Counted from the stretch's first letter, positions 6,681 through 25,899 are shown. The stretch is DNA of 25,899 bases from a virus (IMGVR_UViG_3300043391_001206:1-25899); one strand, 5' to 3'. Numbers and translations: made by a program. The notes: generated by a model not told the origin, from the letters alone.

Positions 6681-6986
6681 ATGGATCAGGAAAACATTAA
6701 GGAAATCGTGAGACTTGTCAAACAAAGTATTGATGATGATGCAAAGCAACAGTTTAATGATCATGGGCAAAAGCAAGTCAAGTTTATGCAGCGTGAGAGC
6801 CTGGAAACCAATAATGAATGGGTAGATTTACATGAGTATGAAAATAAAAGTGAAAAGAGGAAAACATCTCTTGAATTCTCTATTAGCTTCTGCACGTCTT
6901 TGGATGATGGAAAAAGTGTCAAAGAAAAAAGAGAGCAAATAATCGAGACAGCAAGATTATTTTATGAATTTTTATCCGATGATTAA
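6681..6986 (+). CDS. hypothetical protein
   Basis: 101 aa, tightly packed between neighbours. C-terminal motif resembles that of 4502..5053. Confidence 0.65.
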   Translation: MDQENIKEIVRLVKQSIDDDAKQQFNDHGQKQVKFMQRESLETNNEWVDLHEYENKSEKRKTSLEFSISFCTSLDDGKSVKEKREQIIETARLFYEFLSDD

Positions 6987-7089
6987 AAGAATACTTCTGT
7001 GCTCTTCCTTATTTTCTCTTGTGCATAATGGATACGCCTCAAATCCGGATGAAATTCAACAGCATAAGAATGGTTGTCTTTGTCAATAA
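6979..7089 (+). CDS. 36-aa peptide with signal peptide and C-terminal CaaX-like motif
   Basis: Manual translation: MIKRILLCSSLFSLVHNGYASNPDEIQQHKNGCLCQ*. Overlaps the upstream stop and is below the ORF-track cutoff. Confidence 0.55.
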   Translation: MIKRILLCSSLFSLVHNGYASNPDEIQQHKNGCLCQ

Positions 7090-7107
7090 GATATTTCTTT
7101 TTATGTA

Positions 7108-7136
7108 TTGATTCTCTCAAAGTATTTTTATAAGAT
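7108..7136 (+). promoter_or_regulatory. sigma70-type promoter for the capsid genes
   Basis: TTGATT (7108-7113), 17 nt, TAAGAT (7131-7136). Confidence 0.6.
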
Positions 7137-7143
7137 GCATTAT

Positions 7144-7349
7144 TGTGGAGGAGTGGTCTATTTGCCTAAAAACTTATTTCTGCTCCTCCACATATTCTTG
7201 AGCCGCTAGAATTCAAAGAGGCTTTTGTTCCTGAGACGGGAATTAAACAAAGTCCTGATCGAGCCAATCAATCCATGCGCTGTGTTCCTCTTGGGGGAAT
7301 TAAATAATCCAAAAGTAATTTTGTTTTAATTAATCCACAAAAGAGGATT
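7144..7349 (+). ncRNA. candidate structured leader RNA of the capsid operon
   Basis: Perfect 10-bp stem 7144-7153/7183-7192. Two 25-nt hairpin repeats at 7226-7250 and 7283-7307. AATCC/GGATT stem (7332-7349) over the RBS. Confidence 0.5.
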
Positions 7350-7354
7350 TCTCT

Positions 7355-22714: not shown

Positions 22715-22751
22715 GCCTTACTTCCCGCAAAACCTCTTCTATCTTGTAGAT

Positions 22752-22860
22752 CTATGCACATTAGACGTCTTCATGCATAGCTTATTCCCCCTCTATGATT
22801 AAATGATATTTAACTTCACGCCTGTAATGATGTAGGGTATGTATGCTTAGTGAAGTTAAA
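22752..22860 (+). promoter_or_regulatory. two inverted repeats and a possible -10 element upstream of the secreted-protein gene
   Basis: CTATGCA 22752-22758 / TGCATAG 22774-22780. TATGAT 22794-22799. TTTAACTTCAC 22809-22819 / GTGAAGTTAAA 22850-22860. Confidence 0.5.
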
Positions 22861-22881
22861 CGAGACAATTAAGGAAATATA

Positions 22882-24081
22882 ATGAAAAGGTTCTTGTATG
22901 TGCTTGCAGTTTGTGGAAGCGTTCAGAATGGATATGGAACATCTTCTCTAAAGGCTGATTTTGAAGAAGAAATAGCCAAAAATTTAGGGAAATCTTTTAT
23001 CGTTACCGTACCTGTAAATGAAGATTGGTATAAAAAATATAAAGAAACAAAAGATTCGAGAGAATGCGTTAAAGTAAGGAGTGTCGATTATTATTACCAA
23101 TGGTTTTATGCTGAATGGGGAGATAATAATAAAATAAGTAAACATAATAAATATAATGAGCATTGGTCTCCTATATTAACCATTTATTATTCAGATGGAG
23201 ATAAGCAAGTTATCTGTAGAACGGATGCAAAAGGAGAGCATTATACAACAAACACTCCAAATCCTTTGAAATTTACAGAGCTTGAGCCTTACTTAAAACA
23301 AACAACAATAAGGTATGGAAAAAATGAAACAAGAGAAATCTATGAACCAAAATCAAATATCTATATTTCAAATAAAGATAAGGTGACAATTATTCCTGAA
23401 GAAGACATATTGGAAAAAGAAAAATACAGGAATTTATTGCTTAATCATGCAAAAGTGAAAATGCCTAAATGGGAAGGTCTTGGACTCATCAGTCATGATG
23501 ATGATAGAATCAATAGACTTTATAAGCTTTCATCAAACGATTTAATAGATTGGGTTTTTGGTCAAGAAATTGACGCAGTTTCTTATCATGGATCTTCTCT
23601 TGTAGGCGTTACTCCTGATGTTTTTTTGAAGCAAGTAATGGCTGCCAAGATGACAGCAAAGTATGCTTTGTCTCTCTTGGAGAATCCCACCCCTGAGAAT
23701 TTCAAGGATCGCGTTTATTTGGGAAGTAGAGGTAATTGGATGGGGGGAAAGAACAACAGATCCTTGTTCCCTGATACTGAGATGACAAATGCAGAAGCCT
23801 ATTCTCAACACAATGAGTGGATCAACGATGGATATAAAGATGGAGATATTCCTGTCCTTGTGAAGAGGGTTCAGATAAAACAAGACTCTTATGCAAGGAA
23901 TTTCTTGAAGGATGTCTGGGAATATCATGCAGATCCGCGTTGTATGGGGAGGTATGATGCCACCTGGGCTGATCCTAATTACGTTCTAAATCAGTATAAG
24001 ATAAGTCCTGAATATGCGACTTATGATCTGGAGGCTTTCTATACCAGAGCTATGGGTGGGAAGATCAAAAAAATAATTTAA
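22882..24081 (+). CDS. secreted hypothetical protein
   Basis: 399 aa with AAGGA RBS and signal peptide MKRFLYVLAVCGSVQNGYG. N-terminal domain resembles part of the next gene. Confidence 0.8.
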   Translation: MKRFLYVLAVCGSVQNGYGTSSLKADFEEEIAKNLGKSFIVTVPVNEDWYKKYKETKDSRECVKVRSVDYYYQWFYAEWGDNNKISKHNKYNEHWSPILTIYYSDGDKQVICRTDAKGEHYTTNTPNPLKFTELEPYLKQTTIRYGKNETREIYEPKSNIYISNKDKVTIIPEEDILEKEKYRNLLLNHAKVKMPKWEGLGLISHDDDRINRLYKLSSNDLIDWVFGQEIDAVSYHGSSLVGVTPDVFLKQVMAAKMTAKYALSLLENPTPENFKDRVYLGSRGNWMGGKNNRSLFPDTEMTNAEAYSQHNEWINDGYKDGDIPVLVKRVQIKQDSYARNFLKDVWEYHADPRCMGRYDATWADPNYVLNQYKISPEYATYDLEAFYTRAMGGKIKKII

Positions 24082-24087
24082 TTCCAA

Positions 24088-24140
24088 TCGATTTTCATCC
24101 CTAAATCATATAGTCTATCCTGAGAAAAGGATAGACTATG
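24088..24140 (+). promoter_or_regulatory. RBS/start-sequestering hairpin with an embedded putative promoter
   Basis: Perfect 12-bp stem ATAGTCTATCCT 24110-24121 / AGGATAGACTAT 24128-24139. TCGATT (24088), 17 nt, TAGTCT (24111). Confidence 0.65.
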
Positions 24141-25899
24141 GGACTTACATCATCTGACATCGCTGAACGCGAACGCCTTAAAAAACAACGAGCAGAGTAT
24201 CAGGATCATGTTAATAAGATCCAACAAGAACTAAATAAACTTTCCAAAAATAAAGAAATCCCTGCCAATCTTTTTAATTCAGTGCTCTCTCCTCTTCAGA
24301 GAGAGAGAGACCTTGCTGAGAATAATGTCCGTCTTTTGGATAAGACTATTTCTCTCTTTGGTGATAAGGAAAAATCCGTTAATCAGCTTGATGAATTGAC
24401 TAAAAACAAGAAATCCGGCGTGACGGTTAAGAGTGCTAATTATACATACTATTGGGATCATGGCGAGGGGAATATTTTTGGAGAATGTTATGAGCCAAGT
24501 TTGACGGTATCTTTTTCAGATGGAAGCACTAAGAAATACTCTGATACAGAAGCTAAAAATGTTTTCAAAAAAATAAATCCTTATCTACAAAGCCCTAAAG
24601 AAAATAAAGGAATAGGAAATACGCCAAAAAATGGTTGGAGGCTGAATAAAAATAGTATTAGTTACGGAGCTAGCCCAAATTATGTTTTTTTAAACACAAA
24701 TTTATCCAATCCTATCGTTATTTCTGAAAGAGAAATATTTGATCGCAATCAGAAAATTGAAAATGCTCAGGAACAAGTTCAAAACTTATCAAGCATGATT
24801 CAACAAAGAAACAGCGCCATTCAGTCGAATCAGAATTTGATAAAGCAAGAACAGGTCAAATCTAAGAATGCAATTCATGAGATAGAGAAAGCCCGTCTTG
24901 AGGCTCTTCCTGAACAAGAGAAGGCATGGTTGAGGGAAGGATATAAGGAAAGTGACTTTGATGTCCTGAGAGAGAAAAAGGAGAAAGCCCGTCTTGAGGC
25001 TCTTCCTGAACAAGAGAAGGCATGGTTGAGGGAAGGATATAAGGAAAGTGACTTTGATGTCCTGAGAGAGAAAAAGGAGAAAGCCCGTCTTCAACAACTT
25101 GAAGAGCAACAGAAACTCGCTTTGCAATCCAAACGCTTTGATATCGCCAAGAATCTTGGTCAAGCCTTAAAGCAGGAAAAAGAATCTCAGAAAGTGCAAA
25201 GAGAATTACAAGAGAAAGAAAGATTGAAGAAAGAGCGCATTGATACCACACAACAGAATTTGAAAATAGGACAAGAGTCCAATCAAAAAGAAGCTCAGGA
25301 TTGGCTGTCCCAATTAAATGCAGCTCTTGAAGAACCTGTGTCAAAATCATCAGAGCTAAAATTTGAGCCTCTTCCTGTTCGGGAAGAATCCCCCTCATTT
25401 GATGTTGAAAAAGATGAACAGGAAGTCAATCAACTGATTGCTCAAGCTCAGGAAGATCAGGCTCTTCAGAATCTCTACGGAGAAATCAAAGATCTGGGAA
25501 CATTTAGACCTGAGAATTTTCTTCCTGACAAACCATGGAGCTCTTTCGAGAAATTTAAAAATTATCTGGAGGGGAAATTTCCCGCTGAAAAACTGAGGAC
25601 TCAATCATGGAAGAACGAGATTGCTCAGGCTCAGGCAGAATCTTTAGCAAAGAAGCAAGAGCAAGAAAAACTTCTCTCTGAAGCACAAAATATTTCTTCT
25701 CCTCCTTTATCTGATGTTCAGGAAGAGAGATTGAGCCAGCCTCTAGAACAAAATCAGTCAGAGTATGAGAAATCTCTTCAAGAGGCTCAAAATCTGAAAA
25801 ATCAGCTTGTATCTCGATTTAATAGTCTTCCTGAAAATATACAACCTCAACTTATAGAGGAATTTCAAAAAGATTTAGAACTCAATCCCTATGAAGCAG
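24138..25899 (+). CDS. large coiled-coil E/Q/K-rich protein, probable ejection/internal virion protein (partial, runs off the window)
   Basis: Manual translation MGLTSSDIAERERLKKQRAEYQ... stays open to the end of the window (about 587 codons). Absent from the track because it has no stop. Confidence 0.8.
   Translation, partial: MGLTSSDIAERERLKKQRAEYQDHVNKIQQELNKLSKNKEIPANLFNSVLSPLQRERDLAENNVRLLDKTISLFGDKEKSVNQLDELTKNKKSGVTVKSANYTYYWDHGEGNIFGECYEPSLTVSFSDGSTKKYSDTEAKNVFKKINPYLQSPKENKGIGNTPKNGWRLNKNSISYGASPNYVFLNTNLSNPIVISEREIFDRNQKIENAQEQVQNLSSMIQQRNSAIQSNQNLIKQEQVKSKNAIHEIEKARLEALPEQEKAWLREGYKESDFDVLREKKEKARLEALPEQEKAWLREGYKESDFDVLREKKEKARLQQLEEQQKLALQSKRFDIAKNLGQALKQEKESQKVQRELQEKERLKKERIDTTQQNLKIGQESNQKEAQDWLSQLNAALEEPVSKSSELKFEPLPVREESPSFDVEKDEQEVNQLIAQAQEDQALQNLYGEIKDLGTFRPENFLPDKPWSSFEKFKNYLEGKFPAEKLRTQSWKNEIAQAQAESLAKKQEQEKLLSEAQNISSPPLSDVQEERLSQPLEQNQSEYEKSLQEAQNLKNQLVSRFNSLPENIQPQLIEEFQKDLELNPYEA
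24885..25091 (+). repeat. exact 96-bp tandem duplication (2 copies + 15 nt)
   Basis: GAGAAAGCCCGTCTT... starts at 24885, 24981 and 25077. Encodes EKARLEALPEQEKAWLREGYKESDFDVLREKK twice. Confidence 0.95.

Follow-up and report, generated by a model that had tools for sequence, protein, structure and literature searches.

Does the structural operon of a phage carry exported proteins that are directed at a eukaryotic cell? This question is raised by the virus sequence IMGVR_UViG_3300043391_001206:1-25899, a linear stand-alone record that we analysed over its whole length of 25,899 nucleotides (nt), hereafter the window (completeness 46% by CheckV); the sequencing runs containing most of it are freshwater metagenomes. 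A first-pass annotation had described at least four exported, apparently eukaryote-directed effector genes, placed singly between core virion genes. The four open reading frames (ORFs) that it named are all present on the + strand, which carries all long genes of the window, and they lie among the genes for the portal, GroES, capsid, adaptor and virion proteins recognised with Pfam and PHROGs. They are listed here with product lengths in amino acids (aa) and are named by their first position:

6979..7089, + strand, 36-aa ORF, a doubtful effector; predicted signal peptide followed by a 15-aa tail ending C-L-C-Q; its start overlaps the end of the 6681 gene
13332..13457, + strand, 41-aa predicted lipoprotein with an acidic tail, an accessory insert; lipobox and AAGGA ribosome site; its stop overlaps the next start
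17890..18654, + strand, 254-aa orphan; predicted signal peptide, degenerate F-box-like motif at aa 45-70, C-terminal domain without assignment; its stop overlaps the start of the nozzle gene
22882..24081, + strand, 399-aa orphan; predicted signal peptide and AAGGA site

We see about an even chance that the window represents a podophage structural module with four predicted-exported accessory inserts and a likely protist-symbiont host, with 17890 encoding a likely degenerate F-box that came from the effector pool of such a symbiont. The earlier observation was largely confirmed, and its four effectors were reduced to one supported candidate plus exported orphans: the label "eukaryote-directed" stood for 17890 only. 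Apart from its terminal C-L-C-Q, nothing in 6979 supported prenylation, and no eukaryotic motif was found in 13332 or 22882.

Signal peptides were predicted by a rule of our own rather than by SignalP (N-terminal Lys or Arg, an uncharged 9-residue window with a hydropathy of at least 1.9, and a hydrophilic mature start), and exactly these four ORFs were flagged within 373-25899. In a comparison set of 19 segments from 13 related elements, the same rule flagged no ORF of 60 aa or longer and four of 35-59 aa. The two long signal-bearing genes, 17890 and 22882, stand out as a real peculiarity of the window, and the two short ORFs, 6979 and 13332, are nearer to the background of the rule and need other support. 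The rule is insensitive: it flags 15 of 30 Caedimonas-order F-box proteins, so that many true cases are missed. Synteny with related phages identified the four genes as accessory inserts, not core virion genes. Their placement singly between core genes was correct in part; it did not hold for 17890, which ends a three-gene insert (ChaB at 17247, 17438 and 17890), nor for 6979, which follows the non-core 6681 gene.

The adaptor gene abuts the nozzle gene in six related elements (G028, G029, G030, Caedimonas C24, L172 and L031), and ChaB, 17438 and 17890 are therefore additions at this site. The first two are listed together:

17247..17875, + strand, ChaB gene (17247-17441; PF06150, E 9.6e-11) and 145-aa orphan (17438-17875), the older part of the adaptor-nozzle insert

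As in a moron-type gene, 17890 is absent from the syntenic site of relatives and an empty site exists for it: in run X4, which belongs to another study, 17868 is followed directly by 18645 and the whole gene is missing. Its GC content is 0.245 and its GC at third codon positions (GC3) 0.16, against ~0.41 and 0.30-0.47 in the core genes. The protein matched only itself among 1.84 billion representatives and nothing in plasmids, and in 23 Caedimonas-order genomes it gave only four weak matches (E 0.01-0.09), three of them with internal stops; these searches were run without a positive control. A look-up of ChaB as a test for the host returned one uninformative phage match. A similarity between 17890 and 22882 was discarded as not significant (15 of 300 shuffles).

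The claim that 17890 carries an F-box survived as a partial motif with statistical support from a symbiont-derived profile, and it found no support in Pfam (E<=10), NCBIfam or PDB sequences. With a profile of 89 rows, all F-boxes of Caedimonas-order genomes, aa 47-70 of 17890 scored 14.0 bits (E 1.6e-6). None of 2000 shuffles reached this score (1071 of the 2000 were reported, the highest at 7.1 bits), and the reversed protein scored -1.3 bits. Among 32 window proteins, 17890 was the best, and none of the 1801 ORFs of related loci scored above 5.8. The helix 2-3 core, I-x-S-Y-L ... L ... V-x-K-x-aromatic, is in register and gapless over aa 47-70, and the top Atlas feature match of 17890 was an F-box cluster (0.88), which we treat as a lead only. 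The F-box family PF00646 exceeded its cut-off in 20 of the 23 Caedimonas-order genomes versus 3 of 400 other Pseudomonadota, in which up to 17 candidates were scored per genome. In 15 of the 30 Caedimonas-order proteins examined, a signal precedes the F-box, whose start lies at aa 24-112, and the motif position in 17890 fits this range. The signal plus N-terminal F-box-like layout of 17890 is thus one common in Caedimonas-order symbionts.

These 23 genomes (L133-L162, L175-L234) are themselves rich in F-box genes, with up to 25 matches per genome, often in tandem clusters, and half of the genes examined bear an N-terminal signal by our rule.

Several results weigh against an F-box in 17890. 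No F-box family was found in Pfam at E<=10 with either the whole protein or aa 1-120, and NCBIfam and PDB sequences showed none. The score of 14 bits comes from the second profile tried. The first was built from 29 Caedimonas-order F-boxes (L152, with a stop inside the match, had been dropped from 30 loci before the counts) and gave 17890 6.5 bits, a value reached by 4 of 2000 shuffles; left-out true F-boxes scored 19-68 bits with this profile, the only one for which leave-one-out was run. The hhalign comparison gave P 0.002 with a probability of only 13.9%. The match spans just 24-26 residues, and the alignments set in at profile position 8-16. The conserved Leu-Pro-x-Glu opening of helix 1 is missing, with no Pro there, a residue present in 74 of the 89 natural rows. 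In the single-sequence model (pLDDT 34), the helices at 31-40, 66-72 and 75-84 are unreliable. The empty site itself is lightly covered, as both joints in X4 (17868 to 18645, and the skip of 6984-7040 described below) rest on one contig each at a depth below 3. We do not file 17890 as an F-box protein, since it lacks two membership features, a score above the Pfam cut-off and the Leu-Pro start. We read the motif as F-box-derived and degenerate, and it is plausible that the protein works like an F-box.

This evidence bears on a rival explanation that we judge somewhat unlikely. In it, the inserts would be commonplace envelope morons whose target is the bacterium (superinfection exclusion, receptor masking or help with lysis), and the resemblance to an F-box would be what is left of a decayed one, or two helices alike by chance, with no role in a eukaryote; the host could still be a symbiont. 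Sec and lipoprotein signals do indicate the periplasm and membranes, the Leu-Pro start is absent, and 17890 is dispensable in a close variant. On the other side, the motif is placed as in the signal-plus-F-box proteins of symbionts, is gapless and scores above all shuffles, and the 254-aa frame has stayed intact despite the GC content of 0.245.

For 13332, the envelope is our preferred reading. The lipoprotein claim was borne out by our rule, with an N-terminal Lys, a hydrophobic core (hydropathy 2.6) and L-T-A-C at aa 13-16. The genes flanking it abut or overlap in seven relatives (G028, G030, G031, L024, L125, L126 and L031), and G029 and Caedimonas C24 have gaps of ~100-130 nt without a flagged ORF at this site. 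Nothing eukaryotic was seen in 13332, and the predicted lipoprotein more likely acts in the bacterial envelope. Small phage lipoproteins such as Cor, Llp and Bor serve as envelope morons of the kind described above.

The gene after 22882 is truncated by the contig end:

24138..25899, + strand, coiled-coil-rich protein of 587+ aa without a signal peptide; cut by the contig end

By its position, the product of 24138 is likely an ejection protein, and relatives hold large unannotated proteins in the same region. A domain is common to aa 56-139 of 22882 and aa 88-151 of 24138 (E 4e-6; score 94 versus 43±6, reached in 0 of 300 shuffles). Its model consists mostly of strands (pLDDT 55), and Foldseek against PDB returned nothing at E<=0.001. 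If 22882 were a decoy or an exclusion factor in the periplasm, a domain in common with a probable ejection protein would fit, which speaks for the envelope moron explanation. No eukaryotic motif was found in 22882. In searches without a positive control, the shared domain occurred in 0 of 23 Caedimonas-order genomes, 22882 found only itself and nothing in plasmids, viral contigs or Atlas features, and 24138 had no match in viral contigs. The 22882 gene is more stable than 17890: its pieces in run X3 are identical, and 7 of 479 covered bases differ in X4, in which 20 of 277 bases differ at the start of 24138. Within 24138, positions 24885-25076 form an exact 96-nt tandem duplication (32 aa) followed by a partial third copy, and the X4 variant differs here.

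The slot of 22882 is also occupied in the sister phage L031. There, L031:17111-17431 encodes an unrelated 106-aa protein that has a predicted signal and, at its C terminus, a hydrophobic stretch; the gene lies directly before the large terminal gene of L031, and homologues of it were found in 0 of 23 Caedimonas-order genomes (no positive control).

We consider the CaaX reading proposed for 6979 weak. The 36 aa are counted from the second ATG, no clear ribosome site precedes the ORF, and the predicted mature part is just 15 aa. A Cys is indeed present at -4 in the terminal C-L-C-Q; what is missing is an aliphatic second "a" (this residue is Cys), conservation (no homologue was found in related loci) and an effector domain. 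Of 1576 unique ORFs from related phages, 9 have a Cys at -4. In run X4, one contig (depth 2.9) shows a variant with an in-frame loss of 6984-7040 (57 bases; codons 2-21, the whole signal). The signal of 6979 resembles that of 22882 by 33% over 21 aa, which is not significant.

What kind of phage carries these inserts? The SU10-type portal, GroES-like protein, gpT-like capsid, SU10 adaptor, ChaB and virion protein were identified by Pfam and PHROGs, and the core of the module reads as follows:

373..2703, + strand, portal protein, SU10 type (PF23899 E 1.3e-18; phrog_1216 E 4.6e-28)
3912..4379, + strand, GroES-like co-chaperonin, kept in relatives (phrog_3188 E 1.7e-9)
8266..9168, + strand, major capsid protein, gpT-like (PF25209 E 7.4e-9)
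12085..13305, + strand, conserved virion protein with a discoidin-like insert, left neighbour of 13332, kept in relatives (PF00754, weak, E 5e-4)
13820..16372, + strand, tail fibre/spike with an S74 chaperone-like domain, core but variable, with partial matches in relatives (PF13884 E 4.6e-4, below cut-off)
16558..17247, + strand, SU10-type head-tail adaptor (PF24175 E 3.3e-16)
18654..20933, + strand, tail nozzle-like virion protein, with matches in 5 of 5 related records searched (phrog_3287, virion structural protein, E 1.8e-24)

The label "nozzle" was chosen from position and family. With an SU10 portal and adaptor, a gpT-like capsid, GroES and a module without a tape-measure tail, the window is about half of an SU10/HTVC023P-type podophage. 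Two more non-core genes, 4502-5053 and 6681-6986, are without signals and had no match in the related loci tested; the latter gave a weak G1RFP match (E 0.007).

The host was approached through the relatives of the capsid gene. In GenBank, this capsid occurs in HTVC023P, CRP-901/902 and their kin (19 records, 34-41% identity), and the wider podophage family infects Pelagibacter, Roseobacter, Alcaligenes and Caulobacter. Among named bacteria, closer sequences came from protist endosymbionts. A GTDB capsid-pattern search yielded Caedimonas varicaedens as the sole genome (56%), with several capsid and portal copies, and the window capsid is 53-56% identical to those of the Caedimonas prophages. 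Among 72,556 plasmids, three had capsid matches, namely pBealeia1 of Bealeia (55%) and two Megaera plasmids (38%); one of 400 sampled Pseudomonadota had a match, a distant one, and cluster look-ups gave Caedimonas as the only named host. The proposed symbiont host was supported in that the named carriers of closer capsid genes (Caedimonas, Bealeia and Megaera) are all Holosporales/Rickettsiales protist endosymbionts, but the trees disagree. In the eight-gene tree, the window lies within a group (0.985) in which every named host is a protist endosymbiont. This tree carries FastTree supports, its Caedimonas row joins two contigs with a portal fragment, and it leaves out the cultured phages. In the capsid tree, a quick one, Bealeia and Caedimonas form a separate branch, and the cultured phages of free-living hosts stand apart.

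Some of these comparisons count against a symbiont host. More than 100 other capsids without a named host are closer, at 57-65% identity, and two of the phages bearing them carry CsrA, ProQ and peptidyl-tRNA hydrolase (Pth) nearest to gammaproteobacterial-type enzymes in PDB. In the capsid tree, the window forms a long branch amid phages without a named host, and the eight-gene tree pairs it with L031 alone (support 1.0), followed only weakly by Megaera with L041/L044 (0.87). A search for further members of the window/L031 lineage found no third one.

These points favour another explanation, a proteobacterial host that is free-living or loosely associated; the exported proteins would then be secreted enzymes or factors against predators, acquired from an AT-rich donor. 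The host range of the wider family fits it, as do the nearest capsids without a named host, two of them from phages with gamma-type genes. One sampled genome has a homologue of the G028 outer-membrane gene, with no DotA, DotI or ATP/ADP translocase found, and searches of G182 and G086 for these proteins were empty (the Dot searches had no positive control). Set against this, no cultured phage of a free-living host exceeds 41% identity in the capsid, and these phages branch separately; the 400 sampled Pseudomonadota held no close capsid, and F-boxes are rare among them. We regard this explanation as quite improbable and consider it probable that the phage host is intracellular. Telomere-like loose contig ends turned out to be short low-complexity matches and were not used as evidence for a protist.

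Nothing suggests the domesticated prophage that had also been proposed: the visible virion genes are intact, and two further studies contain near-identical or close variants. Domestication does happen in this phage family, because pBealeia1 is a decayed version with six RebB genes, and the inserts could accordingly be pictured as the cargo of a domesticated prophage or of a particle-based delivery device of the symbiont. The window has no bacterial flank, its variants in other studies are near-identical or 90-99% identical, and Sec-exported proteins are routed away from capsid assembly in the cytoplasm, so that we think this idea highly improbable.

The relatives hold further genes of note. 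In G030, L106:3544-4176 encodes a 210-aa leucine-rich-repeat protein (LRR_6, E 6e-14) among the ejection-region genes. Host-type genes occur at L100:13399-13641 and L101:13137-13820 (G028), at L102:18290-18880, L103:13922-14527 and L103:9160-9645 (G031), and at L028:1244-2182; they comprise CsrA, an OmpA-like outer-membrane protein by the terminase, ProQ, Pth, SAM decarboxylase and a sigma-70 factor. The Bealeia "plasmid" pBealeia1 (NZ_CP133271; L129:2344-4635, L130:2825-16877) is a phage of the window's family, with portal, GroES and capsid genes, a fragmented tail region and six RebB R-body genes. The Caedimonas varicaedens genome holds several prophage pieces, and a RebB gene (G001:C27:1941-2141, L118) lies ~2 kb from a portal fragment with IS21-type genes in between; a search of G028, G031, G002 and the window showed no RebB. 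One podophage family thus occurs in Caedimonas, Bealeia and Megaera, and its Bealeia copy has R-body genes. The accessible part of one paper ties the R-body determinants of Caedimonas to plasmids, phage particles and prophage induction (PMC11909080), and that of a 2026 paper states that a phage role in R-body transfer is without direct experimental evidence (PMC13689365). R-bodies have long been observed together with phage-like particles, for which the pBealeia1 phage is a concrete candidate.

How would the inserts act if the podophage module with a degenerate F-box gene is the correct reading? Three of the four overlap the start or stop of a neighbour (22882 is preceded by a 167-nt gap), and for this reason the inserts would be read together with the late operon. 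Sec would move the four proteins into the periplasm, and they might enter the protist cytoplasm at bacterial lysis or through the symbiont's own export route. The F-box-like protein of 17890 might then bind or jam a Skp1 ubiquitin ligase during particle release. In its broadest form, which we consider unlikely, the late operon of protist-endosymbiont podophages would be an exchangeable effector cassette: Sec-exported proteins of symbiont type, including a Skp1-binding F-box mimic, would fill the bacterial periplasm during virion assembly and be released into the protist cytoplasm at lysis. A Sec signal leads to the periplasm only, promoter-like sites are at chance level (44 versus 50.6±6.0 in shuffles), and no homologue of any inserted gene was found in the 23 Caedimonas-order genomes searched, all of which detracts from our main reading. 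Terminator-like sites numbered 20 versus 15.3±4.5 in shuffles.

Carried by a phage and present in only some close variants, a signal-bearing F-box-like gene would offer a small and testable example of phage action on the eukaryotic ubiquitin system, and a possible route for effector swapping between symbionts. If the effector cassette were real, the phage would steer its host's host just when its particles must survive and exit the eukaryotic cell. To our knowledge, few phages are known from protist symbionts. The accessible text of PMC9203015 notes that phages of intracellular bacteria need to cross both the bacterial and the eukaryotic cell, and Holosporales and Rickettsiales are listed among protist-associated genomes in the part of PMC12644861 available. 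No description of this podophage family in symbionts or of a phage-borne signal-plus-F-box gene was found in the open literature, and the word F-box was absent from the Holosporales review searched; subscription papers (such as a 2024 Holosporales genomics study) and supplements may cover pBealeia1 or these F-boxes.

Compared with known phages, the window shares with the HTVC023P/CRP-901-type podophages the portal, GroES, gpT-like capsid (34-41%) and SU10 adaptor, and differs from them in its separate capsid-tree branch and in their free-living hosts. The prophages of Caedimonas varicaedens and pBealeia1, whose hosts are Paramecium endosymbionts, match it in gene order and in the capsid (53-56%), but lack homologues of the four inserts, and their module has no long gene with a signal peptide; pBealeia1 differs further in its clustered RebB block and decayed tail. 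The phage-like plasmids of Megaera polyxenophila (CP113869 and AP017967) have the same module, with a capsid at 38%. In CP113869 (64 kb; L131/L132), it is accompanied by a terminase, a tail fibre and group II introns. A patatin gene lies within the set of tail genes, and a toxin-antitoxin pair and further genes are mixed in with the virion genes or close to them, but no signal-plus-F-box gene was seen in the Megaera plasmids.

The parallel with Legionella AnkB, which has an F-box and a CaaX motif in one protein and uses type IV secretion, was rejected as superficial, because the F-box-like and CaaX-like motifs of the window lie in separate genes 11 kb apart. AnkB is described, in the accessible part of PMC11338181, as an F-box effector that drives degradation of host proteins. 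The signal-plus-F-box proteins of Caedimonas-order symbionts share with 17890 the N-terminal signal ahead of the motif; the motif of 17890 differs in lacking the Leu-Pro start. Among phages of intracellular bacteria, MAnkyphage has ankyrin genes. It was found with Megaira in a cryptomonad, according to the available part of PMC10925606. Phage WO, likewise a phage of an intracellular bacterium with eukaryote-like genes, has a eukaryotic association module of up to 60% of its genome that is unique to WO, as stated in the accessible text of PMC9203015. Whereas WO carries one large module, the window comes from an unrelated podophage, in whose virion module short inserts with signals lie scattered; with dispersed inserts, a single eukaryote-like motif and another phage family, it does not resemble a WO-type module in the 46% of the genome in view. 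Symbiont phages with eukaryote-directed genes are a known theme, while their dispersed, signal-bearing and strain-variable form within a podophage virion module appears to be new.

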